A stretch of 64,000 nt of DNA, taken from positions 64,001-128,000 of the IMG/VR virus record IMGVR_UViG_3300027850_000002; one strand, written 5' to 3'. The stretch's first letter is position 1. Every line of letters begins with the position of its first letter. The stretch is from a virus. A program made the translations under genes and the position numbers. Positions 14,301 to 45,828 of the stretch are shown in pieces. Below the pieces are notes generated by a model. It had not been told where the DNA came from, ran no database searches, and was given only the letters and a program-made list of their open reading frames with translations.

Positions 14301-14836
14301 GCCGTCTGTCCCAGCCGTCGCGTAAGCAGATAGTCGAGCGTTGGTTTGGTCCAGTTCAGGTCGTCCGTGACGAGCGTACCCGCAGCGTACGACTGCAGCG
14401 CCTTGTAGAGCAGGGCGCTGAAGTACGACATCAGGGCGTCCTTGTTCTTCTGGTAGACCTCATGGTCTCGGACCTTTTCGAACAGCTCCTTGGGAATCGC
14501 GGCGGAAAGACCCCAACGCTTCTTCGCGTAGATAAGAGCGTCGGAAACGCTCGTCTCATTGATCGCGGCGATGAAATGGATGGGGTTCCAGAACGAACGG
14601 TGGCAGCCAAAGCAACTCGCGCGATTCTTGTAAGGCGTGACCACGAATGACGCAGTACCGTCCGCATGGAACGGACAGCGCCCCTTGATGTGCGGACCTG
14701 AGATGTGGAAAGCCGCCTCCGGCTTCACCTCCGCAAGCCACGACATCCAGTCCATGTTCTGGACGTCGGTCCACACCCGATTGAGTCGGGTGAAGGCCAC
14801 CTTCGAATCCGTGTTCTTGGCCTTACGCGCCACCAA
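11330..14836 (-). CDS. DNA primase (CHC2 Zn finger + TOPRIM) fused to a C-terminal P-loop ATPase/helicase-like domain
   Basis: CPFH...CFGC; EGEFDALA and PDRDRGG; NAEHESGKSK and LCLEEFE. Confidence 0.8.
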   Translation of the reverse strand: MVARKAKNTDSKVAFTRLNRVWTDVQNMDWMSWLAEVKPEAAFHISGPHIKGRCPFHADGTASFVVTPYKNRASCFGCHRSFWNPIHFIAAINETSVSDALIYAKKRWGLSAAIPKELFEKVRDHEVYQKNKDALMSYFSALLYKALQSYAAGTLVTDDLNWTKPTLDYLLTRRLGQTAPNELVAEKDQPNGSFDQHGVWVTLFGRELLGIFPRIVDIANHFGDTSEEYKFFRSYFGKYTDGQTYIGHLVFPYDDTPTTICRFKLREPVSPAVSQAWVEDTYEPEMDGFRGFYGLRYYRTYLTSEEHGADGPDKGFIGHCKEGEFDALAAIAQQIRRQSDDYISLALSGGGSQSVDRLATFGINRVWIVPDRDRGGDNFVKQILDASKAKNLSFRVFRWPDEYVDWHDPTRPNVWIKDPDNAIKEIGYPRWVRYVNNEKMYASTDEWCYDQMSAEIAQSGTTDVSAISHAAKRWGALLKDEQVCNAYCVAVAKDHNLDAVILRRDILVKNDNEEEFIKRLHTTLLEKYHPVGIQNGEGRKRILSLWNKASRTTDTVILNDERSAETLISRHYGPIYDFITATVGDPPFIVGDDPDASQFNVTMKAKKYREYLNYALLMMAKDLPSMDHAPIKSQGIHMMETTEGRMRSYLVNGRDVYCLLHDGANYTATPLDGPRHEGTIFDNAGAPWLDTIKDAKDLSSNVDLVDLFVRVRDMVETGWAFRYQQLDCTFLAAYVMCLSVMTVFTRQTAVILNAEHESGKSKFTAGFVGGGSASRINVVAHAITMQGYTAASIRQQRNNSSLTLCLEEFEDYGGNDAKSIAVRKVLELCRDLISETAVNWSIGTTTGESRTYHLRFPLVACAIRPLRDAASLSRFVQFELVKDATHKDPVLALAGKFGDDLINKTRHDMVVGLLPHMMTLREHQTAIEQEYVSGGRLPAHASSRFREAMFPILAMLRLLNGLAKERGGENPIPNYQQFAYDFAESRREQLARLKTTSENEQIFETILGSAIQTASVGTQDQMSGMTTIRVMLGDLNKLDDINKTKKGVYLDTKMEWLVVNWVEASQGLLAQTRYRTETPTFLKQVSERSPHHIGNDEVKRARVLERLVDVMGPCQPIDLISVFSIKHLLDATRARRDEAMAKVATPVDTVAEIDPNKAQGTDDGEIVA

Positions 14837-16888: not shown

Positions 16889-17109
16889 GTCATGTCCTTT
16901 TGAAATGCTAGAAGGGAAGTCACTCTAGTGATTTCGATGTTTGTTTGGCAAGCACTCACAGAAAGAAAATCTGGCGCTATTCCTGGGGTGCGTAACGAAA
17001 TGCTACGCAAGGGTGGTGGTGTACCCGCCGAGATTGGCACCCAACGGGTAGTGCCTGATCGTGGAACTATTTGATCACTCGTAAGACGCTTGGTAGTGTG
17101 TTCTTGAAT

Positions 17110-17898
17110 ATGGTGATCCCCCAGGCGCGTACCGCCTCGATGTACTACGCCGAAGTCGCACGGGTGCCGTTGGTGGATGACCCCACCGAAGAGAGGCGCC
17201 TGTTGCAACGATGGCAGCAACATCAAGACGTCAAGGCACGCAACGCCATCGTGCAAACCCATCTCCGCTTCGTCGTGAAGATGGCGCACAAGCGCAGCAA
17301 GGATCCCGAAGCCGTCAAGGACTTCATCGCGGCAGGAAACCTGGGTCTCCTTAAGGCGACCGACAAGTTTGACTGGGTACGCAAACCGTACATTCGCTTT
17401 CTGACGTACGCGGGTTGGTGGGTCTACGAAGAGATGTCGAATCAGGACTACACGACGGCCACGCTCGTTCACGTCCCCGCCCATCGCCAGAAAGCACAAC
17501 GCAGAAACGCACGGGAGTTCCGCGCGGCGGTCCAAGAGCACGGACCCGATGCTGCCTCGGTGCAGAAGATGAACCCCGGACTGTCCGAGAGCGTCGTCAT
17601 GCCGCTCGAGGCGGCGCGTTACACCACCAATGCGACCGAGAGTGAGCCGACGTCTACCTATGGGTCGGATCGGCTTCGTTCGATCGTTCGTGAGGTCATT
17701 GGTCGACTGCCTTCCCGAGAGCAGACCGTCCTCAACCTCTTCTACGGCATCAAAGACGATGCACGGAACTTGGTCCAGATCGCGGCCATCATGGGCATGT
17801 GCTCTGAGCGAGTTCGGCAAATCAAGACCAACGGGATGCGCTTACTTCAGGCTGAGTTCGAAGAAGAGCTGCTGACCGCCGAAGACGCGTATCTCTAG
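17110..17898 (+). CDS. RNA polymerase sigma factor, sigma70 family (regions 1.2, 2, 4)
   Basis: YYAEVARVPL...EERRL; HLRFVVKMA; DFIAAGNLGLLKATDKFD; RFLTYAGWWV; LPSREQTVL...SERVRQI. Confidence 0.92.
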   Translation: MVIPQARTASMYYAEVARVPLVDDPTEERRLLQRWQQHQDVKARNAIVQTHLRFVVKMAHKRSKDPEAVKDFIAAGNLGLLKATDKFDWVRKPYIRFLTYAGWWVYEEMSNQDYTTATLVHVPAHRQKAQRRNAREFRAAVQEHGPDAASVQKMNPGLSESVVMPLEAARYTTNATESEPTSTYGSDRLRSIVREVIGRLPSREQTVLNLFYGIKDDARNLVQIAAIMGMCSERVRQIKTNGMRLLQAEFEEELLTAEDAYL

Positions 17899-20715: not shown

Positions 20716-21098
20716 CGTTTATCCCCTCCGGGGTAATCAAAGGACTCCCCATCCATGAGCTGACGTTCGGGCACAGGGAACTTGCCGGGATTGGCAGCGT
20801 TCTTTTGGGATGCACGAAGAATCGCGTCCATGTCGACAGGCGCATTGCCTCCATCGACGACGGTGAGCGGAGGCGTCGGCGTCGCAGTAACTTCAGGTGC
20901 AGACGCTACGGGCGCGACAGGTGTTGCCTCAAGGTCATCGTCATCCGCGTCACCTTCGTCGACGTTATCGACGGAGACGACTACCGAATTCTTTTTGAAC
21001 ACGATGTTCTCGGCGGTTGCTTCAATGCCCCGCTTCGCGAGGCGCAAGCGCACCATCTTGATGATGTCTTTCTCCTCGTACGTAACCACAATCTTCAT
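20712..21098 (-). CDS. Hypothetical protein
   Basis: ATGA overlaps on both sides; AAGGA SD. Confidence 0.7.
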   Translation of the reverse strand: MKIVVTYEEKDIIKMVRLRLAKRGIEATAENIVFKKNSVVVSVDNVDEGDADDDDLEATPVAPVASAPEVTATPTPPLTVVDGGNAPVDMDAILRASQKNAANPGKFPVPERQLMDGESFDYPGGDKR

Positions 21099-23080
21099 TT
21101 GGTCCTTTCACGGAGCATGGGCAAGGCATACGCCTTGATGACGGGACGGTCCACTTTCTTCGGGTGAACACACCCCTCTTGAAAGGGTTCGACACCTTTA
21201 GCAAGGCACTTCACCGTATGTGGACACAAGGCGCACTCGATCTTGTTCGTGAGCATCGAGTCAACATCGACCTTGTGATCGAGTAGATGTGCCACGGCGA
21301 GTTCAAGCGTGCCGTGACCGATCATCCGGTTAACGGTAACCTTGTTGTTTTGCCCGATTCGATAGTTACGGTCCAAGCACTGAGAGTACGAATTTAACGA
21401 GTACGGCAAGGAGCTATAGACCGTGTATGTAGCGGAGTTCAACGTGATGCCTAGGCCTGTCGTAACTTGCCCAATGTAAACACGTACGGCGGGATCGTCA
21501 TTGAACGCATCGACAGCGACCATCGGGTCACGCGTATTGCCGTCAACACGAACGTGGCCAATCTCTTCTTTGGTAAAACGCTCTTCAATCAGATCCATCT
21601 CGATGTGAAAGTTGCACCAGATGATCACCTTATGAGTCGACGAATCGAGGATGCTGGTAAGCAATTCCATGATCGCATCGAGTTTGGGATTCTCATCGAA
21701 TACGATGGTCGTTGAAGGCCAAGGTGTCGGGTCTACCAGACAACGCGGGGTTCGAGGGTTGATCTGACGCGCCGTACAATCGTCACGGTGTTCACACGGA
21801 GTACCATCACGAATCGTATCGCAATAGAACGGGTCCTTCTCGCTCTTGATGAGAAAGCCCGACGTGATCTGGAGAAGTTTCATCAACGCAGCCGCACGGT
21901 GTGGCATCTCGACCGCTGAGAGTTGGTGCGGCAATAGAGGTATCACCCCAGGTTCACCAGAACGAATCTGGATACCGAGCTGCGCAAGACCTGCAGGGTC
22001 GATACCCATATCAATGACGATCTTGTCGTAGGCGACCGATTGGGCGCGAGATAGTGAATAATCTACGTCTACGAACGTGCGTTCCGGCAGGTCCAGACAC
22101 TGCTCTTTAGTACGACGTATCGCCAAGAACGTGGTACGTGCATTGATAACGTCGAGATTCTTGTAACCAACCACGATGGGTGAGTTGGGACCGCGAGTGA
22201 CGACAAACGTTTTTTTGTATTTCCAGTACGTCTCGGGCATGAAGCAATCGCCCAGGATCTTGTAAGGGCCATACAGGTCCAGCGGATTGCCCTCGGTAGG
22301 CGAGCCCGTCATGAGGATTCGGCGCATCGCCTTCTGTGCGATCTCCCATGTTGTCTTCGTCCGCTCGGACTGCCAGGTCTTCACGCCGTGGCTTTCATCG
22401 CAGACCAGAATGCTGTAAGGCAGCCGTTCTACGAGCAAATCCACTAAACTTCTCGCAGTGTCGTACGTCGAAAGAACCATGTCGGTGCCCTCGGCCGCCG
22501 CGCGATCGAGGATCGCGCGCTTCTGTTTGGGCGTTCCGACCAGCGCTGCCCACGTCACCTGGCGGCCCGAGTGAAGGTCGATCTGACGACCCCAGTTCCG
22601 GACCGTGACACGCGGGCCGAGTACGAGTGCAGTTGCTGTATTGCCGGTATGGCGCAGAAGCCGGATGAGGTCGATCGCGATCTTCGACTTGCCGAGCCCT
22701 GGATCGTAGAACAACGCTGCCCGCATGTTGTAGAAGACGTGACAGAGTCCTTCGACCTGATGCTGATACGGCGACGTGACGTACTCGAATCCGACGGGCA
22801 GAGCTTGGGCCTCGAGCCGTTGGCGAACCTGTTCGAGGTCTTCGATGTGCCGTTGCGCAACGTCGGAGATCACAACGTTGACGTCGGAGGACACGGCCTG
22901 GAAGTCAGCAAGCACCTTGCTGGATGCCGGATAGAACGCGGGGTACATCCACAGCGCGCGATCGCTGTCCCACGTTGCACCAAACACGCGTCCGAACGTT
23001 TGGTTCTGGCCGTGTACCAGGAAGACGGGCGTTCCGTTGCCCGCACGACCGACACGGATTTCCATTTGGGCTCGACCCAT
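21095..23080 (-). CDS. SNF2-family (SF2) helicase
   Basis: DPGLGKSK, VCDESH, TGSP, GLGITL, QCLDRNYRIGQ; Cys-rich insert and C-terminus. Confidence 0.9.
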   Translation of the reverse strand: MGRAQMEIRVGRAGNGTPVFLVHGQNQTFGRVFGATWDSDRALWMYPAFYPASSKVLADFQAVSSDVNVVISDVAQRHIEDLEQVRQRLEAQALPVGFEYVTSPYQHQVEGLCHVFYNMRAALFYDPGLGKSKIAIDLIRLLRHTGNTATALVLGPRVTVRNWGRQIDLHSGRQVTWAALVGTPKQKRAILDRAAAEGTDMVLSTYDTARSLVDLLVERLPYSILVCDESHGVKTWQSERTKTTWEIAQKAMRRILMTGSPTEGNPLDLYGPYKILGDCFMPETYWKYKKTFVVTRGPNSPIVVGYKNLDVINARTTFLAIRRTKEQCLDLPERTFVDVDYSLSRAQSVAYDKIVIDMGIDPAGLAQLGIQIRSGEPGVIPLLPHQLSAVEMPHRAAALMKLLQITSGFLIKSEKDPFYCDTIRDGTPCEHRDDCTARQINPRTPRCLVDPTPWPSTTIVFDENPKLDAIMELLTSILDSSTHKVIIWCNFHIEMDLIEERFTKEEIGHVRVDGNTRDPMVAVDAFNDDPAVRVYIGQVTTGLGITLNSATYTVYSSLPYSLNSYSQCLDRNYRIGQNNKVTVNRMIGHGTLELAVAHLLDHKVDVDSMLTNKIECALCPHTVKCLAKGVEPFQEGCVHPKKVDRPVIKAYALPMLRERTK

Positions 23081-23123
23081 GAGGCGTCCGCCTTTCTATC
23101 ATGCGATGATTGCGGGGTAAACC

Positions 23124-24914
23124 ATGGCCATTGATGGAATGTTCGACTCGGGCGTTTCCGATCTGTCGACGCACAACACGTCGTCACACGGTAGTCCACT
23201 GTTCGACTTCCTCACGGCGTTCGCGCCTAGGAAGCTCAAGGACCTCTTTCGTCTTTGCGAGTACCTCTACTTCAACAGCGCCCAGATCTACGCGGCATTG
23301 CAGAAGTTCTGTACGTATCCCGTCACGGACATCGTCTACGAGACGCAGAACGAAGCGCTCAAGGATTACTACGAAGACCTACACAACAAGACGCTCAAGA
23401 CCAAACGCATCTTGATCCGTGCGGCCGTCGACAAGTTCGTCTACGGAAACGCGTTCTTCTCGATGTACGCGCCGTTCGTTCGCTTCCTCAAGTGTCCGAA
23501 GTGCGCGACGCTGACCAACATCCAGCAGGTCACCTACAAGTTCAAGTTGAAGAAGCTGGCGTTCAACTACACGTGCAAGGGCTGCAGCGTTCGCGTCGAC
23601 GTCACTGACAAGGACGTCATCGATCGCAAGATCACACGCAAGGATCGTATCTCAGTGATCCGCTGGGATCCGAAGCTGATGGACATCGACTACAACCCCA
23701 TCACCGGACACAGCGAGTACTACTACACGATCCCCAAGGAAATTAAGGAGCGTTGCGCCAAGGGGAACAAGCACCTCATCGACACCATGCCGATGGAGTT
23801 CTTGAAGGCGATCCGCGAGGACAAGATCTTCAAGTTCGACGAGGGTCAAGTCTTCCACATGCGCATGGATGCGCCTGCGGGTATCGAAGCGCAGTGGGGC
23901 TTCCCGCCACTCGCGTCGACGATCAAGCTGTTCTTCTACGCGGCCGTGCTGCGTAAGGCGAACGAGGCCATCGCGCTCGAGTACATCGTTCCCCTGCGCA
24001 TCATCTCGCCGAAGCAGTCGACGGCAAACGCTGATCCGATGACCACCATCTCCTTGGCCAAGTGGTCCGAGGAGATGAAGACGTCGGTCAAGAAGTGGCG
24101 CCGCGATCCACTGCACATCATGTGGTCGCCAATCCCCGCCGAAGTCACACACCTCGGTGGACAGGCGCGCGCACTCATGACGCTCGGCGAAGTCCAGGCG
24201 GCTGAAGACAACATCATTGCAGCGATGGGGTTGCCCAAGGAGTTCATCTACGGAGGTTTCTCCGCGATGGGCTCGGGCATTCAGTTGCGCGTCCTCGAGA
24301 ATCAGCTCGTCCACCAAACCGGCGACCTCAATGACCTTCTTCAATGGGTCACTGACAAATCCGCGAAGCAGCTCGGACGTGGCACCGTGGTGGTCTCGCT
24401 CGCTCCGTTCCGTTTCATCGACGACGTCCAACAGAAATCCCTTCTGCTGCAGCTCAACGGCGCAGACCCATCGACGGGTCCTTGGATTTCCAAGCGCACG
24501 ATCGGCGTGGCGTTCGACATCGATCCAAGCGACGAGCGCAAGTGGCGCAAGCAAGAGGCGCTCGACGATGCGCGTGTCGCGCAAGAGCTGCAGGTCGAGA
24601 TGCAGAAGCGGCAGAACAACCTTGGAGCCCAGGCACGTGCGCAGGCTCAGCAAGGTCAGCAAGGGCTGTCCTACGACCAGCAGGCCGTGATCGCAGAGGC
24701 AGATCAGCTCGTGCAACAACTGATGGGGTTGGACCCGGGAACGCGGCAATCGCAAATGCACGCGCTTCAGACCGAAGACATGGTGATGTACGCCGTGGTC
24801 AAGGAACGTCTGCACGACCAGACCACGCAGCAAAACCAGCAAGCGATCGCAGCGGCCCGCCAAGGCGGCGATCCCGCAGCCAACGGAGTGCCCCCTCCAG
24901 GCGCCGTGGGTTGA
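23124..24914 (+). CDS. Portal protein
   Basis: First gene of the structural block; DKFVYGNAF clip-like motif, WGFPPL, 'IIAAMGLPKEFIYGG' portal-like helix; Q-rich tail. Confidence 0.75.
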   Translation: MAIDGMFDSGVSDLSTHNTSSHGSPLFDFLTAFAPRKLKDLFRLCEYLYFNSAQIYAALQKFCTYPVTDIVYETQNEALKDYYEDLHNKTLKTKRILIRAAVDKFVYGNAFFSMYAPFVRFLKCPKCATLTNIQQVTYKFKLKKLAFNYTCKGCSVRVDVTDKDVIDRKITRKDRISVIRWDPKLMDIDYNPITGHSEYYYTIPKEIKERCAKGNKHLIDTMPMEFLKAIREDKIFKFDEGQVFHMRMDAPAGIEAQWGFPPLASTIKLFFYAAVLRKANEAIALEYIVPLRIISPKQSTANADPMTTISLAKWSEEMKTSVKKWRRDPLHIMWSPIPAEVTHLGGQARALMTLGEVQAAEDNIIAAMGLPKEFIYGGFSAMGSGIQLRVLENQLVHQTGDLNDLLQWVTDKSAKQLGRGTVVVSLAPFRFIDDVQQKSLLLQLNGADPSTGPWISKRTIGVAFDIDPSDERKWRKQEALDDARVAQELQVEMQKRQNNLGAQARAQAQQGQQGLSYDQQAVIAEADQLVQQLMGLDPGTRQSQMHALQTEDMVMYAVVKERLHDQTTQQNQQAIAAARQGGDPAANGVPPPGAVG

Positions 24915-25339: not shown

Positions 25340-28300
25340 ATGGTGCCGCTACGCCCAATGCTCGAAGACGCGGCCACGCGTCGCGAGATGATCCGCAAGA
25401 AGGTCATCGAGGGTCTCGAACAATCGTTCCCGCTGAAGGCGGGCAAACACATGGTCGAGCTGTCCAACGTTCGGGTGGACCCGCAGGAGTTTTCCTCCCG
25501 CGAACAGAAGCGTGCGGTGCTCGAAGGCAAGACGTTATCGGAACGTGTACGCGGTGACATCACGGTCAAGAACGCAGCGGGCGGTGTCGTCGACCACTCG
25601 AAGGACTTCACACTGCTTCAGCTGCCGTACTTTACGCCGCGACACACGTTCATCCTCGACGGCACAGAGTACTCCGTATCGAATCAGCTGCGCACCAAAC
25701 CAGGCGCGTACGTCCGTCGCCGCGGCAACGAAGAGCTGGAGGCGACGTTCAACCTTTCAAAGGGCGCCAACTTCCGTGTGTCGATGGAGCCCGAGAAGGG
25801 CCTCCTCTACATGCAGCCGTCACACACGACGACCAAGATCCCGTTGCATCCCATCCTACGCGCGCTGGGGATGCCGCATCAGGACATCGCGGCCGGATGG
25901 GGCTCCGAAATCGCGGGCATGAATCGTGACGCTTGGAAGAATCCAGACAAGCACGTCAGCAAGCTTTACGAGACGCTCATCCATCCCGCGAAACAGGTCG
26001 CAGCGACCACAGAAGATCGAGCACACGCGTTGCGTGAATACTTCAGTGCAACGGCGATGGACCCTGAGGTCACTGCACACACGCTCGGTTATCCGTACGA
26101 CAAAGCTTCGTCATCGTCGATCCTGGCGGCATCCAAGAAACTGCTCGACGTGCACAGGGCCGCCGCCGATGTCGACGACCGTGACTCGTTGGCGTTCAAA
26201 ACGTTTCACTCCGTAGACGACTTCGTCAAAGAACGGGTTCAGCTGGAAGCGCGTGCGATGCGCGCAAAGCTTGGCTGGAAACTGGACGCGAGCCACGGCA
26301 ACCTGAAGAAGGCGCTGCCCGCAGGACCGTTCACGCGTTCGATGCACGGTCTCTTGGTGGGCTCGTCGCTTTCGGCGGTCCCCATGCAGATCAATCCGAT
26401 GGAGCTGCTCGACGAGGCGTCACGCGTCACGATGCTTGGTGAAGGTGCGATTGCGTCCGAGCGCGCGATCCCCCTCGAGGCTCGTGATGTTCATCCAACC
26501 CACTTCGGAATTCTGGACCCTGCACGCACGCCTGAAAGCTTCAAGGTGGGCGTGGACCTGCGCGCAACAATCGGCGCACGGCGTGATGACAAGGGAAACC
26601 TCTACGCGCCCGTGCGCGATATCAAGAGCGGCGCAGCGACGTATCTCAAGGCGGGCGACATGGCGAAGTCCGTCATCGCATTCCCTGGCGAACATGTCGG
26701 GCCAGGAAAAATGGTCGATGCGATGGCGCACGGAGTGGTGTCGCGTGTGTCGTCCGACAAGGTCACGCACCAGCTCGAACACGTCGCTGATCAGTACGGG
26801 CCGACCTCAAACCTGTTGCCGTTGGTCTACGGTATCCAGGCAAACCGCGTGCTCATGGCCAGCAAACACCAAGGCCAGGCATTGCCGCTCACGTACCGTG
26901 AAGCGCCGCTCGTACAGGTCGCGTCGTGGAAGCCAGGGACGTCTGTCGAACGAGAGATGGTCAAACTGATTGTTCCAACCGCGCGCTTCGCCGGCATGGT
27001 CACAAAGATCGACGACGATCACATCCACATCACGCCGCACACAGACAAACACGCATCTGAGGCCGCATCTGAAGTCGAGACGCGGTTGGAACGTGTGAAG
27101 GTGGCAGCGACGGAGCCTCACAAACTCCATTACGACGTGCACTTTCCGCTCGCTGCCAAGACGATGCTCCACAATGAGCTAACCGTGAAGGTGGGCGACC
27201 GTGTCGAAAAGGACCAGCTCCTCGCGCACTCGAACTTCACCAAGGACGGAACGCTCGCCCTCGGGACCAACCTGCGCGTGGCGTACATGCCCTACCGCGG
27301 CCTCAACACCAACGATGGCATCGTCGTATCGCAAGGCGCTGCGGACAAGCTCACCAGCGAACACATGTACCAACACGCGCTCTCACGTGACGGTGATGTT
27401 CAGCTAGGTCGAGAAAAACATCGTACGTACTTCGGCAGTCGCTACACCGCAGAGCAGTACAACAAGCTAGACGACGACGGTGTCGTCAAACCCGGTACGA
27501 CATTGCACAAGGGTGACTTGATTGTCGCGGGTATTCGAGAGAACAAAGTCACGGGGGACGCGCTCCTCCTTGGCAAGCTGTCCAAGTCCTTGGTCAAGCC
27601 GTATCAAGAAGTCACGCAAGTCTGGACGCACGACCATCCCGGTACGGTGATCGACGTTGCCAAGACCGCCAAGCAAGCCGCTGCATCTGTTCGTACGCAA
27701 GAAACGCTTCAAATCGGCGACAAGCTGTCCAACCGATTCGGCAACAAGGGCGTCATCGCGAAGATCATCCCAGATCATCAGATGATCCAGGACGAACACG
27801 GGCGCCCTGTCGACCTGCTGTTCACCTCCGCGGGCATCGTCTCGCGCATTAACCCCGCGCAGGTCATCGAGACAGCGCTCGGCAAAGTTGCTGAGAAGAT
27901 CGGCAAACCGATCGTCGTACCGCAATACACGCCGGGCCGAGACAACATCCAGTTCGCCAAGAACCTGCTCAAGGAGCACGGGCTCACCGACAAGGAAACG
28001 GTCCTCGACCCGATGACGGGAAAGAAAATCCCGAACATCGTCGTGGGCAAGAGCTACATCCTCAAGCTGTTCAAGACGACGGACTCGAACTGGGCAGCAC
28101 ACGGCGCCGAGAAGTACGACTACAACCAGCAGCCCGCACGTGGTGGTGACGAAGGCGCCAAGGGCATCGGCAAGATGGAGTTCGACGGGCTCGTGGCACA
28201 CAACGCCCGGAATGTGTTGCGTGAAGCTGCGTCCATCAAGAGCCAACGTAACGACGAGTTCTGGCGTGCAATTCAACTCGGGCTTCCAACACCCTCGCCC

Positions 28301-29755
28301 AAGACGCCGTTCGCCTACGACAAGCTGCAGAGCATGCTTACGGGCGCCGGCGTCAAGGTCACAAAGACAGGCTCGAGGCTCGCGTTGGGACCTTTGACCG
28401 ACGCCGACGTCAAGTCGATGTCCTCAGGTGCGCTCAAGGATCCGAGCAAGCTCATTCGCGCCAAGGACCTTCGTCCCGAGACACACGGTCTGTTCGACCC
28501 CGGCATGACCGGCGGTATGGCAGGAACGAAATGGTCACACGTCGATTTGCACGAACCGATCGTCAACCCAGTGTTCGAAGAGCCGGTCCGTCGACTGCTT
28601 GGGCTCACGCAGAAGGAGTTCACGGAGCGCGTCGGCAAAGGCGGGCAGTGGTTCAAAACCGCACTCAATGAGATTCACGTCGACAACAAACTGAAGGACC
28701 TGACAGCACAGTCAAAGAAGGCGCGCGGACCAGCGCTCGATGGTGTGGTGAAGCAGATCAAGTATCTCGGGGCGCTAAAGGAACGTGGCCTCAAGCCTGC
28801 GGACGCCTACGTCATCTCAATGGTGCCCGTGACACCGCCCGTGATTCGTCCAATCCTTCCGCTTCAAGATGGGCGACTGCAGGTCAGCGATGCGAACCTC
28901 CTCTACAAGGATGCATTCCTCGCGAACCACCAACTCCGAGAATCAGCGAAGACGTTGCCGTCGTCGGAACTTCCGATGCCTCGTCAACATCTCTACGACG
29001 CGGTGAGCGCGCTTTACGGCGTGGGTGACCCCGTCAGCCCAGGTGCAGAGAAGCGCGGAGCCAAAGGCTACCTCGCGGCCATCACAGGTACGCGCCCTGG
29101 AAGTGGGTTCTTCCAGTCCAAGATCATGAAGCGTCAACAAGACGTCAGTGGTCGCGCGACCATCGCGCCTGACCCTACCTTGTCAATGGACGAGATTGGC
29201 GTGCCTGAAGGCATGCTCTGGGGCATGTATGGAAAGTTCGTCATCGGGCGCTTGGTCCGACGCGGCTATACAGCAACGGATGCGCAGAAGATGGTGGATG
29301 ATCGTGTCCCGACTGCACGGGATGAATTGATCAATGAATCACATGAACGTCCGGTCATGGTCAACCGAGCACCGTCATTGCATCGTTTCAACATCGTGGG
29401 GGCGTATCCCAAGATTGTTGAGGGAAAGACGCTCAAGCTAAACCCGTTCGCTGAAAAAGGGATGAACGCGGACTACGATGGGGATGCGCTACAGATCCAC
29501 GCTCCGGTAACACCTGGAGGCATCGAAGACGTCAAAAAGATGACGCTCTCGCACCTGATCTTCGCGGACAAACGTCCCGGCGTCTTGAACATCGCGCCTG
29601 ACATGGAGGCCGTGCTCGGGCTGCACCGTGCCACGCAGGTGGCCACCAATAAGAAGCTCAAGCACTTCGAGTCGCAAGAAGAAGCGATGGCGGCGTACCA
29701 CCGCGGGGACATCACCCTCAACGACCCCATCGAAATCAAAGGCAAGCACCTATAA
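25340..29755 (+). CDS. Phage DNA-directed RNA polymerase: complete beta-like subunit fused to the N-terminal (catalytic) half of beta'
   Basis: beta motifs FILDGTEY..SNQLR, RDVHPTHFG..TPE, NRVLMASKHQGQA, LALGTN..AYMPY, GDKLSNRFGNKGV, SRIN, QQP..G..IGKME; beta' motifs GLFD, VPVTPPVIRP, DVSGRATI, NRAPSLHR, NADYDGD (29465-29485). Confidence 0.95.
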   Translation: MVPLRPMLEDAATRREMIRKKVIEGLEQSFPLKAGKHMVELSNVRVDPQEFSSREQKRAVLEGKTLSERVRGDITVKNAAGGVVDHSKDFTLLQLPYFTPRHTFILDGTEYSVSNQLRTKPGAYVRRRGNEELEATFNLSKGANFRVSMEPEKGLLYMQPSHTTTKIPLHPILRALGMPHQDIAAGWGSEIAGMNRDAWKNPDKHVSKLYETLIHPAKQVAATTEDRAHALREYFSATAMDPEVTAHTLGYPYDKASSSSILAASKKLLDVHRAAADVDDRDSLAFKTFHSVDDFVKERVQLEARAMRAKLGWKLDASHGNLKKALPAGPFTRSMHGLLVGSSLSAVPMQINPMELLDEASRVTMLGEGAIASERAIPLEARDVHPTHFGILDPARTPESFKVGVDLRATIGARRDDKGNLYAPVRDIKSGAATYLKAGDMAKSVIAFPGEHVGPGKMVDAMAHGVVSRVSSDKVTHQLEHVADQYGPTSNLLPLVYGIQANRVLMASKHQGQALPLTYREAPLVQVASWKPGTSVEREMVKLIVPTARFAGMVTKIDDDHIHITPHTDKHASEAASEVETRLERVKVAATEPHKLHYDVHFPLAAKTMLHNELTVKVGDRVEKDQLLAHSNFTKDGTLALGTNLRVAYMPYRGLNTNDGIVVSQGAADKLTSEHMYQHALSRDGDVQLGREKHRTYFGSRYTAEQYNKLDDDGVVKPGTTLHKGDLIVAGIRENKVTGDALLLGKLSKSLVKPYQEVTQVWTHDHPGTVIDVAKTAKQAAASVRTQETLQIGDKLSNRFGNKGVIAKIIPDHQMIQDEHGRPVDLLFTSAGIVSRINPAQVIETALGKVAEKIGKPIVVPQYTPGRDNIQFAKNLLKEHGLTDKETVLDPMTGKKIPNIVVGKSYILKLFKTTDSNWAAHGAEKYDYNQQPARGGDEGAKGIGKMEFDGLVAHNARNVLREAASIKSQRNDEFWRAIQLGLPTPSPKTPFAYDKLQSMLTGAGVKVTKTGSRLALGPLTDADVKSMSSGALKDPSKLIRAKDLRPETHGLFDPGMTGGMAGTKWSHVDLHEPIVNPVFEEPVRRLLGLTQKEFTERVGKGGQWFKTALNEIHVDNKLKDLTAQSKKARGPALDGVVKQIKYLGALKERGLKPADAYVISMVPVTPPVIRPILPLQDGRLQVSDANLLYKDAFLANHQLRESAKTLPSSELPMPRQHLYDAVSALYGVGDPVSPGAEKRGAKGYLAAITGTRPGSGFFQSKIMKRQQDVSGRATIAPDPTLSMDEIGVPEGMLWGMYGKFVIGRLVRRGYTATDAQKMVDDRVPTARDELINESHERPVMVNRAPSLHRFNIVGAYPKIVEGKTLKLNPFAEKGMNADYDGDALQIHAPVTPGGIEDVKKMTLSHLIFADKRPGVLNIAPDMEAVLGLHRATQVATNKKLKHFESQEEAMAAYHRGDITLNDPIEIKGKHL

Positions 29756-29756
29756 T
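29749..29756 (+). promoter_or_regulatory. CCTATAAT late-promoter-like element, leaderless configuration
   Basis: TATAAT 29751-29756 overlaps the RNAP stop, 5 nt before GTG 29762. Confidence 0.6.
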
Positions 29757-29761
29757 AAAGC

Positions 29762-30130
29762 GTGTCCTTCGTCAGCAACGCGCACGGTCGAGGCGTGGTC
29801 GCCGCTCTCGTGCGGTTCGGTCTCAAGAACGCAGCCGAGGAGCTGCGGCTGAAAATCCCGAGCCGTACGTTTCACGGATTCGACGCGGCCCACAAAACAG
29901 AAGCGGACCGCGGCGCGAAGAAAGCAGCTGACGAGATCGAGGGCAACGCGAACAACCTCGCGGACATGTTCAAGCAGCTCGAAGAGGGTGTTTCACCCGC
30001 CGTTCAGCTTGCCTCGCGTGACCCGCTCGATCGACAAGTGTCGTGGGGCGCACCGTCGAACCTTGCGGCCGGCGATGCGGGGAACCGCGTTAGTGATATG
30101 GGACAACCAACCGGCTTTGGAGGCGTCTGA
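29762..30130 (+). CDS. Small protein with shared N-terminal signal motif
   Basis: SNAHGRGVVAALVRFGLKNAA. Confidence 0.7.
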   Translation: MSFVSNAHGRGVVAALVRFGLKNAAEELRLKIPSRTFHGFDAAHKTEADRGAKKAADEIEGNANNLADMFKQLEEGVSPAVQLASRDPLDRQVSWGAPSNLAAGDAGNRVSDMGQPTGFGGV

Positions 30131-30537
30131 TGCTCGATCGTTTTGTTAACCAGGGTCGCATTGACGCGATGGTGCGTTTCAAGGTCAGCATGTCGCTGGG
30201 TAAACCAGGTGGCGGGAGTCGCTTCAGCGCTCCGCCAATGGCAGCAGCACCGGCTGCGGCTGCCGCCAGTGCGGGCGGCGGCGGTTTCATGGACAAGGCC
30301 AAAGCGTTCGGCAGTGGCCAGCTCGGGGCCGCGAAGGACCTTCTGGGCAATATGCGCCAAGGCCTCGGCGGAGCAGCGTCCCCCGAGCTAGGTGCGGCAG
30401 CTCGCGGTGCTGCGCTCGGCAATCTCAAGACTCTCGCGCCGTCGCTCCTCGCAGGCGGCGGTCTCTACTTGATGCACAAGCACAAGCAGGAGCAGGCGCA
30501 GGCGCGGCAGCAGCAGATGATGCCGGGCAGTTTCTGA
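30130..30537 (+). CDS. Gly/Ala-rich protein with shared N-terminal signal motif and C-terminal hydrophobic segment
   Basis: FVNQGRIDAMVRFKVS; LAPSLLAGGGLYLM. Confidence 0.7.
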   Translation: MLDRFVNQGRIDAMVRFKVSMSLGKPGGGSRFSAPPMAAAPAAAAASAGGGGFMDKAKAFGSGQLGAAKDLLGNMRQGLGGAASPELGAAARGAALGNLKTLAPSLLAGGGLYLMHKHKQEQAQARQQQMMPGSF

Positions 30538-30548
30538 AACGTTGAACC

Positions 30549-32330
30549 ATGCCGACGACCCTTGGCCAACATCTCGTCGATTCGATCCTTCCACAGAAGT
30601 GGAAGGGTGGCGGCGTTCTGACCAAGGGCGCGTTGAACACCATGCTTCTGGGTGTGGCCAAGGACGACGTGCACAAGTACCCCGACGTCGTGACACGGCT
30701 CAAAAGGCTGGGTGACGAGGTCGCTACGCTCGACGGAATTTCCGTCGGTCTCGACGACATTGCACCGCACGCAACCGACCGTGACGCCGCGTTGAAGCCG
30801 CACGCTGACGCGTTCCACCAGGCGACGAACAACCCCGACAAGATCAAGGCCCTCATCGGCGGGCAGAACGCGATGCTCAACCTCGCGCGCAATCACCCCG
30901 GCACGATGGGTGAGATGGTACGTGCTGGCGGACGCGGCAACGCCGCGCAGCTCATGCGTACGGTTGGAGCGCCGGTGTTTGCCGAAGATTCCAAAGGGAA
31001 AGTCATCCCGTGGTTCGTCAACAAGAGCTTCTCCGAAGGACTCAAGCCGGCAGACGCATGGGTGATGGGCGGGCAGGCGCGCGTCAATGCGGTGGTCTCG
31101 AACATTTCGGTCGTTGAACCAGGAGACCTTGCCAAAATTCTCGTCAACAACATGGGCGACCAGCTCGTGTCGTCCGTCGACTGCGGAACGCACAATGGTC
31201 TCGCGATGCTTCCGACCGATGCCCACATCATCGATCGGTACCTGGCAGGCACGAATCAACTGATCACGCCGCAGCTTGCGTCGCACCTCGCCAAAGAAGG
31301 CAAGGACGTCATCGTGCGTTCACCGATGACTTGTCAGGCCGCACACGGTGTCTGTCAACACTGCCAGGGCTTGTCGACGTCAGGACACGCCCACCCCATC
31401 GGGACGAACATCGGCGTACGCGCGGCACAGGCCCTCGCGGAACCTCTCACCCAGTTCGCGCTCAACGCCAAGCACGGCGGACGTGTGGTTGGTGTCGACG
31501 ACGAGAAGCGGCTCGAGGGCATCAAAGGCGTGCGAGCACTGCTCGAGATTCCATCGTCGTTCGCGCACAAGGCCGTGCTCTCGGATCGTGACGGGTCGGT
31601 GTCAAAGATCGACAAGGCACCACAAGGCGGTCACTTCGTCTTCGTCGGCGCCGGCAGTCACTACGTACCGCCCGCGCACAAGGTGACGGTCAACGTCGGC
31701 CAGTCAATGTACGCGGGCGACCTGCTCTCAGACGGCGTTCCCAAGCCAGACGAAATCGTTCAACACAAGGGACTCGGCGAAGGACGGCGTTACCTCGTCG
31801 ACGCGCTCTCGGACGTCTACAAACGTGCCGGCTCCGAGATCGACAAACGGCACCTGGAAATCTTGGCCAAGAGCGTGCTCAACCACGTTCAGATCACAGA
31901 CCCAGGTCCGCACGATGCCTTTCTCAAAGGTGACATCGTCAACTACAACCAGTTCCAGTCGGCGGTCGCTGCGTCGAAACAACGGCGTCCGACGGCAGAC
32001 GCGATCGGCGAAACGCTTGCCGAAGGCGTCCTACATCACACTGCGGGCACGTCCATGACACAGCCGATGGTCGATCAACTCGTTCGCCACGGAATCACAA
32101 CCGTCGCGACCGCGAATCCCGGTCCGCGCGCACTGCCTTTCATGCGGCCCGCGTCACGTACGCCGCTGCTCAACCCTGATTGGATGGCACGTCTCGCACA
32201 CCGTTACTTGAAAGAGTCACTGTTGACGGGCATCCACCGTGGTGATGTTTCGAACTTGCATGGAGCGTCACCCGTACCTGCGTACGTTGCAGGCACTGAG
32301 TTTGGCTTAGGCGAAGAGGGCCATTACTGA
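30549..32330 (+). CDS. Phage RNA polymerase beta' C-terminal half (bridge helix, trigger loop)
   Basis: TTLGQ..ILP, SVGLDD, AGGRGN, SFSEGL, DCGT, RSPMTC..GVCQHC, AAQALAEPLTQFALNAKHGG, IDKRHLEI. Confidence 0.93.
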   Translation: MPTTLGQHLVDSILPQKWKGGGVLTKGALNTMLLGVAKDDVHKYPDVVTRLKRLGDEVATLDGISVGLDDIAPHATDRDAALKPHADAFHQATNNPDKIKALIGGQNAMLNLARNHPGTMGEMVRAGGRGNAAQLMRTVGAPVFAEDSKGKVIPWFVNKSFSEGLKPADAWVMGGQARVNAVVSNISVVEPGDLAKILVNNMGDQLVSSVDCGTHNGLAMLPTDAHIIDRYLAGTNQLITPQLASHLAKEGKDVIVRSPMTCQAAHGVCQHCQGLSTSGHAHPIGTNIGVRAAQALAEPLTQFALNAKHGGRVVGVDDEKRLEGIKGVRALLEIPSSFAHKAVLSDRDGSVSKIDKAPQGGHFVFVGAGSHYVPPAHKVTVNVGQSMYAGDLLSDGVPKPDEIVQHKGLGEGRRYLVDALSDVYKRAGSEIDKRHLEILAKSVLNHVQITDPGPHDAFLKGDIVNYNQFQSAVAASKQRRPTADAIGETLAEGVLHHTAGTSMTQPMVDQLVRHGITTVATANPGPRALPFMRPASRTPLLNPDWMARLAHRYLKESLLTGIHRGDVSNLHGASPVPAYVAGTEFGLGEEGHY

Positions 32331-40446: not shown

Positions 40447-41012
40447 CGTCCTTTGCTCGCGCTCTCGAAACGTCGGTCCTTCTCGCGGAGAAGATCGCGT
40501 CGTCGCGCTCGGAAAACCCGACGTTACGAGAGAAGCTCGCGCTCGCTGACTTCGCTGCGTTCGGCCTCTTCAAGCGGGCAGCGCTCGACCCAGCGGCCTT
40601 GTCTTCGCTGCAGCGTGGACTCGGTTGGGGTGTTGGGCTCGGAATCCCCGCGCTCGCTGCGGGACACATGTTCTTGAACGATGCGCGCGACCACAGCGGC
40701 GAAGTCCTGCGTGATGCACGCAACCAAGCGCTCATCACGGCAGCGGGCGTTGGCGGCATGCAAGCGCTCGGGGAGGCTTTCAAACGGAAGCCACAACCGT
40801 CGCAACACAACGTCAACGTTTCAATGCCGCAACAGCCAGAGCAGCCACAGCTCGACGATCAGCAAAGGCTCGCCGCCGCCATCATGGTCGATGATGTGCT
40901 CGAGGCAGCGTGCAGTCAGCTTAGCGATCCTGTCGCAAAGCACGCAGCGCTCGTGGAACTCATCAAACACCGCAGTGAAGCGACGAACCTTCTACGGAGT
41001 CTTTTGTCGTGA
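40443..41012 (+). CDS. K-x-A-rich protein with hydrophobic Gly-rich segment
   Basis: EKIAS, EKLAL, FKRAA; GLGWGVGLGIPALAAG. Confidence 0.7.
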   Translation: MTSFARALETSVLLAEKIASSRSENPTLREKLALADFAAFGLFKRAALDPAALSSLQRGLGWGVGLGIPALAAGHMFLNDARDHSGEVLRDARNQALITAAGVGGMQALGEAFKRKPQPSQHNVNVSMPQQPEQPQLDDQQRLAAAIMVDDVLEAACSQLSDPVAKHAALVELIKHRSEATNLLRSLLS

Positions 41013-42751
41013 AGAAGATCATCGAGCTGGATGACTACTTTCCGACGGGTGAACCGACCGTTCAAATCATCCTGCCGTGGAACAACGGACGTAGCGTCGA
41101 CACGAGTCGTGTTACCAAGTACGCGTCCGAAGCGCTCGATTACATCAAGCACGTCGCACCTGAGCCTGGCAAAACCGCGCTCCTGCTCAACGCGATGGGC
41201 GCCGAGGAGACCTACGGACCGAACCGCAACGGCGATGGGTTCCCTGAGTTTCCCGTCCCAGCTCGCGGCAAGATTGCATCGGCAGATCGTCGTTGGTTCG
41301 TACCACCGGGCGAAGAGCTGACGCACCATTACGCGTCGTTCGAAAAGAATCCTGCCCACGCGTTCATGCACCACGCAAACCGAGATCCGTCGAAGGCCTC
41401 TGGCGTGGTGAAGAAGGCGTTCTGGAATCCGCGCATGCATCGCGTGGAGCTGCTTACCCTTGTCGACAACGACAAGGACCCCGAGTGGATCAAGCGTGCG
41501 AGCGACGGTGAGTTCGTGCCCGTCAGCATGGGCTGTCGAATCAAGCGTGATGTCTGCGCACGATGCGGCAACGAAGCGCCCACGCGCGCGGACTACTGCG
41601 ACCACGTGAAGTTCGCGATGAATCAGGTCGACTCGAACGGGTTCAAGGACTATGTCCACAACCCATCGCCCGACTTTTTCGACATCTCGCGCGTGTTCCG
41701 CCCTGCGGATCGTACGGGCTACACACTCAAGAAAGTCGCAGAGACCTACGAGGTCCGACTCTCGGCAGACCTCGGCGAGATCGCCGATCGTCTCGCGCTC
41801 AAGAGCGGTGCTTCGCAAAAGCTATCCGACATCGACAAAGTGATTCGCGCTGAACCGCTCGCGTCCAGTACGCTCACACCAGACGAGAAATCGTTCATCG
41901 TAAAATTCCGGGACCACGCGGGTCCCAAGCTCGCGGCTGCACCGCGCATCAACACGGCAGGTCTGCATGTGTGGTCTCTCGGAGAGACGCTCACCGCTGC
42001 CGCAAAACACGGTGTCGTATTCAACGACCGTGAATTCATCGGACTCGCAACAAGCAAGCTCGCAGGACATCCAGTCACATTGCTTGAAGCACAGACGGAC
42101 AAGATCGCAGCCGCCGGTCGTTGGTCGCTCGCGCTGTTTGCTGAACGCCCTGAGCTACTCGCCGAAGTGATTGATAGCGGCGTGCTCGAGTCTTCAAAGA
42201 CCGCGAAGGAGTTAGATGTATTCTTCGCGAGTGTGAGCGAGAAGCGTGCGTACGCCGGAGAGATGCTCTATCGACGTCTCGTACCTGAAGATATCGGACT
42301 TGGCCCTGACGCTGCGCCCACCACGGACGTGCTGCACACGCAATACGGTGACACCACACGCGGTGCAGCGATCGATGCACAAGACGCAGTCACGCGAGCA
42401 CACATGGGCAAGGTGGTTGGCGGTGCAGGTCTGCTCCTCGGCGGATACAAAGCGCTCACTGCATTTCCATGGATGCGTAAATTCAAGGTGCCGCTTGCGA
42501 TCGGAGCAGGGGCTCTCGGCGCATCCACGTTGGGCAAACGTCCTGGTGGAACAATGCGTACCGATGAAGGCTACGACATTCCAGACATCACAGAACTGAC
42601 GTCGAAGACTGCATCGCAGGCGGCGTTTGTTCACCTTATCGAATGCGCACAAACAATGACGCGCAGATTCGATTTCTCGAGTATCAAGGTTGCGAACCTG
42701 GCGTCGTTAGATCAGGTGGCCATGGCGCTCGGTTCCATCGTCTTGACTTGA
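41009..42751 (+). CDS. Prohead (capsid maturation) protease with Zn-binding insert and K-x-A-rich C-terminal extension
   Basis: NRNGDGFP, FMHH (candidate His), VSMGC (candidate Ser), CARCG...CDH, FFDISRVFRPAD; upstream of the capsid genes. Confidence 0.75.
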   Translation: MKKIIELDDYFPTGEPTVQIILPWNNGRSVDTSRVTKYASEALDYIKHVAPEPGKTALLLNAMGAEETYGPNRNGDGFPEFPVPARGKIASADRRWFVPPGEELTHHYASFEKNPAHAFMHHANRDPSKASGVVKKAFWNPRMHRVELLTLVDNDKDPEWIKRASDGEFVPVSMGCRIKRDVCARCGNEAPTRADYCDHVKFAMNQVDSNGFKDYVHNPSPDFFDISRVFRPADRTGYTLKKVAETYEVRLSADLGEIADRLALKSGASQKLSDIDKVIRAEPLASSTLTPDEKSFIVKFRDHAGPKLAAAPRINTAGLHVWSLGETLTAAAKHGVVFNDREFIGLATSKLAGHPVTLLEAQTDKIAAAGRWSLALFAERPELLAEVIDSGVLESSKTAKELDVFFASVSEKRAYAGEMLYRRLVPEDIGLGPDAAPTTDVLHTQYGDTTRGAAIDAQDAVTRAHMGKVVGGAGLLLGGYKALTAFPWMRKFKVPLAIGAGALGASTLGKRPGGTMRTDEGYDIPDITELTSKTASQAAFVHLIECAQTMTRRFDFSSIKVANLASLDQVAMALGSIVLT

Positions 42752-44889: not shown

Positions 44890-45828
44890 ATGTCGGCAGC
44901 GTACAAAACTCAGACCCAGCAGGTCTCGGCTCAGTTCATCAACTCCAACTTCGTCCGTAAGGTCGAGGACGGTCGCACCAAGGAGGCGGAGGCCGAGGGC
45001 ACCGCCTTCATCCGCCAGAAGCTCCGTCAGGAATCCTTCGCGCGCGAGATCATCGAGCCAGTCATGCTGGCGGACGATGAGATCGACCGCGACGAGAACA
45101 CGGATCAGCCCAAGAAGATCGTCGAGAAGGAGCCCGACTCCGTCGCCACGTTCGTGCCGTTCAACGGTACGGCGCAGCGCACGTGGTTCCGTGGCAAGCG
45201 CTTCTCGGTCTTCTTCGGCAAGACCGAGTCGCAGCGGTTCACCAAGAACAAGTTCGAGCTGATGACGTATCAGAACGACATCCGCAAGATCCTCTCCGAC
45301 AACTCGGTGAAGGACATGTCGGACCAGGAAGACCAGAAGTTCCTGGACACCATCAACGCGATCATCGCGTTGAACCTCGCGACGCAGCGCACCCTCGCGG
45401 GCGCGTTCAACTCGAGCGCGTTCAAGCAAGGCTTCCAGGCGCTCGTCAATCGGAAGCAGCCAATCGGCAAGCTCCTGATGTCGAAGTCGACGTACTACGA
45501 GGCCCTCGACCTGCCGGCGACCGCCGTCGGTAACGACGTGGCGTCGCGGCACTACGACGTGGGCATCGAGGCCGAGGAGAAGCTGTGGGGCATCCCCGTG
45601 GTTTCGACCATCAAGCGTGAGATCGTCGACGACGTCGCCGGTGCCACCCGCCGCTCGGTCTACGTGTTCGCGCCGCAGAACTACCTCGGCGTGTTCTTCC
45701 TGCTGCAGGACGCAACCCTGTACATCAAGCAGGAAGCCGACATCATCGAGTTCTGGAGCTACGCAGCCCCGGGCATCGGGATCGGCAACACGCTCGCGTC
45801 GCAGCGTATCGACCTGCCGTTCGCCTGA
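44890..45828 (+). CDS. Major capsid protein
   Basis: 312 aa, TAAGGAG SD, strongly biased codons, follows protease/scaffold/decoration; LWGIPVV and VYVFAP resemble HK97-fold C-terminal strands. Confidence 0.75.
   Translation: MSAAYKTQTQQVSAQFINSNFVRKVEDGRTKEAEAEGTAFIRQKLRQESFAREIIEPVMLADDEIDRDENTDQPKKIVEKEPDSVATFVPFNGTAQRTWFRGKRFSVFFGKTESQRFTKNKFELMTYQNDIRKILSDNSVKDMSDQEDQKFLDTINAIIALNLATQRTLAGAFNSSAFKQGFQALVNRKQPIGKLLMSKSTYYEALDLPATAVGNDVASRHYDVGIEAEEKLWGIPVVSTIKREIVDDVAGATRRSVYVFAPQNYLGVFFLLQDATLYIKQEADIIEFWSYAAPGIGIGNTLASQRIDLPFA

Follow-up and report, generated by a model that had tools for sequence, protein, structure and literature searches.

In Helicobacter and Wolbachia, the β and β′ subunits of RNA polymerase (RNAP) are joined in a single, full-length chain, RpoBC, that uses α and ω. 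All cellular cores need α, whereas those of phages phiKZ and AR9 work without it (PMC7598289). Both phiKZ-type enzymes also break β′ after its double-psi β-barrel (DPBB), at the cyanobacterial site (PMC7598289). The polymerase considered here is encoded in a 64,000-nucleotide (nt) window of a viral genome (IMG/VR record IMGVR_UViG_3300027850_000002, positions 64,001 to 128,000), which forms part of a single 175,415-base-pair (bp) contig estimated by CheckV to be 94% complete and encoding terminase, portal, head protease, capsid, and sheath genes. Its two open reading frames (ORFs) divide the enzyme in an unusual manner: ORF A carries a whole, trimmed β fused to the N-terminal part of β′ (β′N), and ORF B carries the C-terminal remainder (β′C), with two small genes, g1 and g2, in between (Table 1). 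An original prediction, made from the window's letters alone, had described this locus as a polymerase fused and then re-split. The layout is real and common to hundreds of phages, including the cultured Salmonella phage Arash.

All 120 best homologs of ORF A contain the same β–β′N fusion and end where ORF A ends. Among 28 IMG/VR loci, a separate ORF B lies downstream in all 22 that reach far enough, and g1 and g2 both intervene in 16 of these. The two-chain layout and its break point are also found in Arash (~34% identity) and Vibrio phage D69 (31–33%). Arash gp206 (1525 amino acids, aa) and gp216 (606 aa; OQ632216) are the same two chains with the same break point and the same portal–small gene–ORF A order, although other genes lie between them and their β lacks a Lys-x-Ala (K-x-A) loop discussed below. 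Arash and Vibrio phages D69, D148, and D181 belong to one and the same split clade. In every locus examined, as well as in Arash and D69, the polymerase genes are located between the portal and the protease and capsid genes. The window locus shares the traits by which the family is recognized, namely the fusion, deletion of a Zn-binding domain, a break before a TTxG motif, and a gene adjoining the portal. The layout is thus no one-off but the norm for a large family, some of whose members are in culture. It had also named branching within bacterial RpoB/RpoC as the outcome that would tell against it; instead, the family occupies its own clade on a long stem, apart from the seven bacterial taxa sampled (Shimodaira–Hasegawa, SH, support 0.999). 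The notion that the locus is misassembled, or is an ordinary bacterial rpoB/rpoC pair, is refuted and retains virtually no probability, given the uniformly fused homologs, the presence of both genes in 22 other contigs and in cultured phages, the separate clade, and neighbors that include terminase, portal, capsid, and sheath genes. Within the literature covered, from which subscription journals were mostly absent, searches directed at the layout, the Arash polymerase, the D-series Vibrio phages, or K-x-A cleavage turned up no description; the Arash paper labels gp206 and gp216 plainly as β and β′ and leaves the fusion and split unremarked (PMC10585845).

The Pfam domains Rpb2_3, Rpb2_6, Rpb1_1, and Rpb1_2 follow one another in a single frame of ORF A, and ORF B contains Rpb1_5, bearing out the predicted ORF coordinates and the passage from β to β′ in one frame. 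Profile mapping to Salmonella RpoB/RpoC equated β 49–1342 with A1–1011, which puts the end of β inside the predicted fusion interval (28350–28390). The rest of ORF A corresponds to β′ ~28–551 (ending at ~551–555), the first ~27 residues of β′ being absent, and ORF B to β′ 572–1346, starting on the TTxG motif as had been noted. ORF A therefore holds both barrels, the flap, the clamp, and the catalytic Asp triad, while ORF B supplies the rim helices, bridge helix, second Zn site, trigger loop, and jaw, and lacks SI3 and the C-terminal ~60 residues of β′. Missing or replaced are β 227–420, 933–1048, and 1132–1185, together with the N-terminal Zn domain, 552–571, 947–1133, and the last 60 residues of β′, so that the two chains combined amount to ~2060 residues versus ~2750 for E. 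coli β plus β′. The predicted loss of the N-terminal Zn domain extends across the family: in 232 of the 238 members scored, an 11-residue linker takes the place of β′ ~60–100, and none has a Cys there; ORF A is devoid of Cys altogether. The second Zn site in ORF B is intact, with four Cys at positions 212, 262, 269, and 272, and the bridge helix and trigger-loop His are present.

The catalytic apparatus is strongly conserved. β residues K1065, K1073, R1106, D814, R678, and Q688 and β′ residues D460, D462, D464, and R425 are kept in 97–100% of the family, the DxDGD triad of the β′ barrel (the predicted NADYDGD, found at A1376) in 98–100%, and the two Lys of the β barrel, A795 and A803, are invariant. 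In ORF A the rifampicin-pocket residues Q513, D516, H526, and S531 are altered. An AlphaFold2 model of A601–1471 has a mean predicted local distance difference test (pLDDT) score of 89.3, with about 90–95 over the junction, and, at E about 1e-28, matches the β as well as the β′ chains in solved structures of bacterial enzymes. It displays the clamp helices and flap-tip helix that the original prediction had called retained. By sequence, ORFs A and B together qualify as a two-barrel (DPBB) multisubunit-type RNAP and, in keeping with that prediction, make up a minimal enzyme of two chains, probably active, in which a single translated chain holds both barrels.

Searches of the whole genome produced no match to α or ω, while the same searches found both in 14 of 14 control genomes; the original prediction had made this observation for the window. 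β′ 552–571 and the C-terminal tail, both missing here, presumably lie against αII and ω in the bacterial enzyme. The genome encodes two σ factors; the original prediction overlooked them, as it did the signs of virion packaging and the loop at which ORF A may be cut after translation. One, outside the window, is 33% identical to the Arash virion protein gp10 and has 266 homologs; the other, in the window, is orthologous to gp196, which goes unnamed in the Arash virion table (PMC10585845). A complex model of the gp10-type σ with A640–1330 scored 0.70, compared to 0.32 for the best of three controls, passing a mark that 58 of 80 solved pairs and 2 of 110 mismatched pairs attained. Its runs agreed in at least 93% of contacts, with partner pLDDT of at least 78; σ residues 58–76 make the closest contacts, with the clamp helices, and the interface includes the flap tip. 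Likeness to, or memory of, solved holoenzymes may account for this pass. In one locus with a single-chain polymerase, a σ gene sits directly 3′ of the polymerase gene. The gp10-type σ has an N-terminal K-x-A, but its invariance in 5 close homologs does not extend to a set of 54, and it is not claimed as a feature.

Packaging of the polymerase into virions is probable, judging from the Arash particles and from features of the head cluster. In Arash particles, gp206 yielded the most spectra (3516, with 128 unique peptides), accompanied by gp216 (1210) and σ gp10 (467), against 1333 for the capsid protein (PMC10585845). The motif CTAT[AC]ATT occurs 14 times in the present genome and 0–2 times in shuffles, and 11 of 19 loose copies lie 8–60 nt upstream of a gene start where 0.5 were expected. 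A late-promoter-like form, CCTAT(A/C)ATT, precedes structural genes at window positions 2073, 33015, 42775, 47173, 50138, 58623, and 61577. A second signature, at the protein level, is K-x-A: of the Lys residues in head-region proteins, 72 of 212 begin the motif, versus 209 of 1999 elsewhere (p 1e-17); the enrichment is specific to the +2 offset and recurs in Arash head proteins. A leader, [YHF]xxGxxxA[LM]xx[FY]x[LI], opens g1 and five other late proteins, often with a K-x-A directly behind it in relatives, and is a candidate capsid-targeting tag. This leader helix is seen on small, unrelated late proteins at window positions 29783, 32345, 32788, 46914, 47782, and 62427. The genes g1 and g2, which the original prediction called cargo, are indeed conserved neighbors with a shared leader; their role as cargo is plausible. 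Neither had a family match, and g1 also gave no Pfam match and no Atlas match at 0.9 or above.

Two K-x-A motifs (nt 27047 and 27098; K570 and K587) reside in a variable surface loop of β in ORF A, a candidate head-protease site and point of cargo insertion. The loop has a K-x-A in 122 of 145 close homologs but in 6 of 143 distant ones, where the same hairpin is a plain 9-residue turn. In 27 close homologs it accommodates inserts of 100–350 aa, among them a GNAT and a pyrophosphatase, flanked by K-x-A on both sides in 20 of the 27. Some relatives bear a 400–500 aa tail on ORF B behind a K-x-A. C-terminal cargo of 400–1100 aa on β′C is observed at L020:13077-16400, L025, L026, and L028 and in P0270-P0282 and P0299-P0314; in L020 and L028 it is joined via K-x-A, and in P0272 it includes a GNAT. 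The simplest reading of K-x-A would be a head-protease code, with the head maturation protease of the window as the candidate cutter. Phage T4 offers a parallel: it has a capsid-targeting sequence, and its gp21 processes head proteins, cutting after Glu. The two systems share a short common leader and a recurring motif in head proteins beside a head protease; here, however, the motif is K-x-A, cleavage is conjectural, and the motif also occurs inside the polymerase. A nick of ORF A by the head protease at this loop is mildly favored. Two candidates for a natural genetic split of β at the loop were discarded: the apparent one in P0264 is an assembly frameshift, and that in P0137 sits at a contig end.

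Taken together, these observations fit, with reasonable likelihood, a virion-delivered, α-free, σ-dependent early polymerase that is made late and packed into the capsid. ORFs A and B would form the core of the phage's only RNAP. The β–β′ fusion would tie the catalytic barrels together and so replace the α dimer and ω as assembly aids, and ORF B would dock on ORF A to contribute the bridge helix and trigger loop. Expressed late together with the head genes, both chains would be packaged with the Arash gp10-type σ, and the injected holoenzyme would transcribe early genes without host polymerase; the σ encoded in the window would serve later transcription. In this subclade, the head protease would probably also nick ORF A at the K-x-A loop, generating a three-chain mature enzyme and freeing the cargo domains inserted there in relatives. 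The most far-reaching version, a self-assembling core that dispenses with α and ω, uses ordinary σ-70-family factors, is injected from the capsid, is cut in this subclade as a polyprotein by the head protease at K-x-A within β, and acts as a carrier for swappable injected enzymes, is tentative and on balance doubtful.

Several observations weigh against the virion-delivered, α-free polymerase. Because the genome is 94% complete, a small gene may be missing from it, and the fold retains the β surface where host α could bind. Trigger-loop R933 and β H1237 are changed, and several of the clamp positions that contact σ in E. coli (R275, R281, and E295) are not conserved. The boundaries of the head region used to count K-x-A were set after the data were seen. 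Both Arash and D69 lack the K-x-A loop, and the nick is therefore not required by the family. The Arash particles came from one sucrose gradient and contained replication enzymes, and the authors allow for co-purification (PMC10585845). One alternative is a hybrid core in which the two chains borrow the α dimer, and perhaps ω, of the host. The need of all cellular cores for α (PMC7598289) speaks for such borrowing, as does the fact that the two chains, unlike the remodeled phiKZ enzymes, align with bacterial β and β′ along most of their length. Yet one family at 34% identity spans hosts as distant as Salmonella, Vibrio, and that of the present high-GC phage; β′ 552–571 and the β N-terminus are deleted; and phiKZ and AR9 cores function without α, the fusion being an alternative link. 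Borrowed host α is thus unlikely. About as improbable is an enzyme that never enters the virion but acts during infection on middle and late genes with the σ encoded in the window, its presence in Arash particles being the carry-over named by the authors. Since only one polymerase is encoded, later transcription must rely on either that enzyme or the host's, which lends this alternative some appeal; a dual early and late role is nonetheless compatible with a virion enzyme. Location in the head cluster behind a late-like motif, spectra of gp206 in excess of those of the capsid protein, and the cargo and head-type K-x-A sites that both chains contain in relatives all argue for packaging.

A further alternative concerns the order of events. 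Among 149 cluster representatives, 55 have β′C on the same chain and 87 end where ORF A ends; a search with ORF B recovered 29 additional single-chain proteins, for a total of at least 84. (P0213, P0222, and P0261, first called single-chain, have no β′C match and intein-length tails, and were not counted.) The 55 measure about 2000–2090 aa, inteins excluded, and in single-chain forms the A-part joins the TTxG motif directly, without a linker; the break therefore falls at a bare turn. The split forms group in one clade (SH 0.998), together with a lone single-chain protein, P0165. With bacteria as outgroup, 11 of 11 root positions within the split clade were rejected (approximately unbiased, AU, test, p ≤ 0.002). 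A closer sister group, retrieved by an IMG/VR motif scan (SH 0.992), has complete members that are single chains of 2244–2329 aa, devoid of the Zn domain where scorable; with this outgroup, too, roots inside the split clade were rejected (AU p ≤ 0.004), the best root lying between the single-chain and split groups and several single-chain roots also being allowed. (Sister-group members include L182, L196, L213, L234, and L270; L208, also fused, belongs to neither group.) Since β′ is unbroken in either outgroup, the shortest history consists of a fusion and a subsequent break, and the "fused and re-split" order of the original prediction is upheld: a single fusion very probably gave rise to a single-chain β–β′ ancestor that would later have been broken at a surface turn into two chains. 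In the reverse order, β′ would have been broken first, β then fused to β′N, and the single chains created by a second fusion. Breaks after the β′ barrel are common, the best root separates the two groups rather than falling within the single chains, and P0165 would demand a re-fusion or a second break if fusion came first. Still, a break-first history is quite improbable in view of the single-chain sister group, the whole β′ of bacteria and of the mReC phage polymerases, the rejected roots, and a break point unlike those of IME392, YerA41, and cyanobacteria. These values derive from SH-like supports and AU tests under LG+F+G4, a simple model, and from alignments built on family-derived profiles, which can favor family coherence.

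Table 1. Features of the polymerase locus and associated genes (window coordinates, except for the second sigma gene)
Feature	Position	Strand	Description
ORF A	25340..29755	+	1471 aa; whole trimmed β fused to N-terminal part of β′
β/β′ fusion junction	28337..28420	+	In ORF A; β ends at A~1011 (nt ~28370)
Deleted β′ N-terminal Zn-binding domain	28487..28549	+	Site of 11-aa linker without Cys
Catalytic NADYDGD	29465..29485	+	A1376–1382
Variable loop	27035..27130	+	β SBHM hairpin (A~566–597; E. coli β ~738–750)
g1	29762..30130	+	122 aa; N-terminal leader helix, then K-x-A; candidate head-internal protein
g2	30130..30537	+	135 aa; Gly/Ala-rich; variant of g1-type leader
ORF B	30549..32330	+	593 aa; β′ from ~572
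Portal	23124..24914	+	Homolog of Arash gp204 (E 3e-89); opens the gene cluster to which the polymerase belongs
Head maturation protease	41009..42751	+	PHROG 18299 (E 1.9e-7); 37% to Arash gp222
Major capsid protein	44890..45828	+	40% to Arash gp226; K-E-A near N-terminus in both
Sigma-70-family protein	17071..17898	+	Regions 2 and 4; ortholog of Arash gp196
Second sigma	G000:45970-46722		Ortholog of Arash gp10; outside window, in tail/baseplate cluster
Late-promoter-like variant CTATCAT	23096..23102	+	28 nt upstream of portal
Late-promoter-like variant CTATAAT	29750	+	12 nt upstream of g1

Other genes of the window add context. An SNF2-family ATPase (21095-23080, minus strand), a possible polymerase helper, is divergent from the portal gene and found in the same neighborhood in Arash (gp198) and D69. 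Compared with Arash gp1, the large terminase (5045-7723) is interrupted by ~355 extra aa, probably an intein. On the minus strand, 8340-11294 and 11330-14836 encode a family A DNA polymerase with an N-terminal UDG-like domain and a DnaG-type primase with a long C-terminal part. Inserts of intein length recur at conserved sites in homologs of the polymerase (A~400, 797, 940, 1063, and 1382; B~190 and 305), exemplified by L007:8001-13409, L018:7995-13409, P0130, and P0289. At L056:3717-4037, an Acb2/Tad1-like gene lies directly downstream of a family polymerase gene. A GTDB scan returned one ordinary rpoB fragment only and gives no pointer to the host.

The interest of the family lies in its combination of traits. 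Whereas the known α-free phage enzymes of phiKZ and AR9 are heavily remodeled and do not use σ, this one keeps a bacterial core and σ partners, in ~2060 residues that exist as one chain or two. With Arash in culture, it becomes testable whether a fusion can replace α and what constitutes a minimal σ-dependent polymerase, and the single-chain members could serve as simple, one-gene, σ-programmed laboratory polymerases. Although it is common in viromes, the family escaped the filters of the mReC survey. Those enzymes are likewise phage-encoded, shortened, alignable with bacterial β and β′, and found on large tailed-phage contigs (PMC7481178). The mReC rows examined list separate β and β′ proteins, each of 887 aa or more (PMC7481178), and the survey called for separate COG0085 and COG0086 proteins of at least 800 aa, the latter with NADxDGD; here the separate β′ piece has 593 aa and no NADxDGD. 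Seven published mReC contigs form two clades outside the window's family (in 359 columns, which do not fix deep nodes), and the window's capsid protein has no PF07068 match.

Measured against the bacterial core, the locus has no separate β, no whole β′, no N-terminal Zn domain, and no α or ω match in the same genome, and it does not branch among the RpoB/RpoC of the seven bacterial taxa sampled. Both barrels share one polypeptide in the crAss-like virion RNAP and YonO (PMC7481178, PMC7824862), as they do here, although those enzymes are barely alignable with bacterial subunits; and neither they nor RpoBC were fused and then broken again. Conversely, β′ is interrupted in the E. coli ~520–630 region in cyanobacterial and plastid RpoC1 and RpoC2 (at ~595, an estimate from RpoC2 start offsets), YerA41 (about 625), and IME392 (520–535), in each case 25–70 residues from the present break at 551/572 and without fusion to β. 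The window's break lies in the same region and is therefore another instance of where breaks are tolerated; the unusual part is the whole β fused to β′N, not the break in β′. With phiKZ and AR9 the enzyme shares the lack of α and ω, a β′ broken after its barrel (the site as described in PMC7598289), and probably a virion-packed form. Those phages, however, also split β into two or three genes, and have two paralogous enzymes and no σ homolog, as opposed to one enzyme with a whole, fused β and two σ-70-family factors. The original prediction's contrast with phiKZ-type splits thus holds for the fused β but not for the β′ break, which is alike (PMC7598289). Most likely, then, this polymerase works like a virion RNAP of the phiKZ kind while being built like a trimmed bacterial core, and is not a phiKZ-type member.

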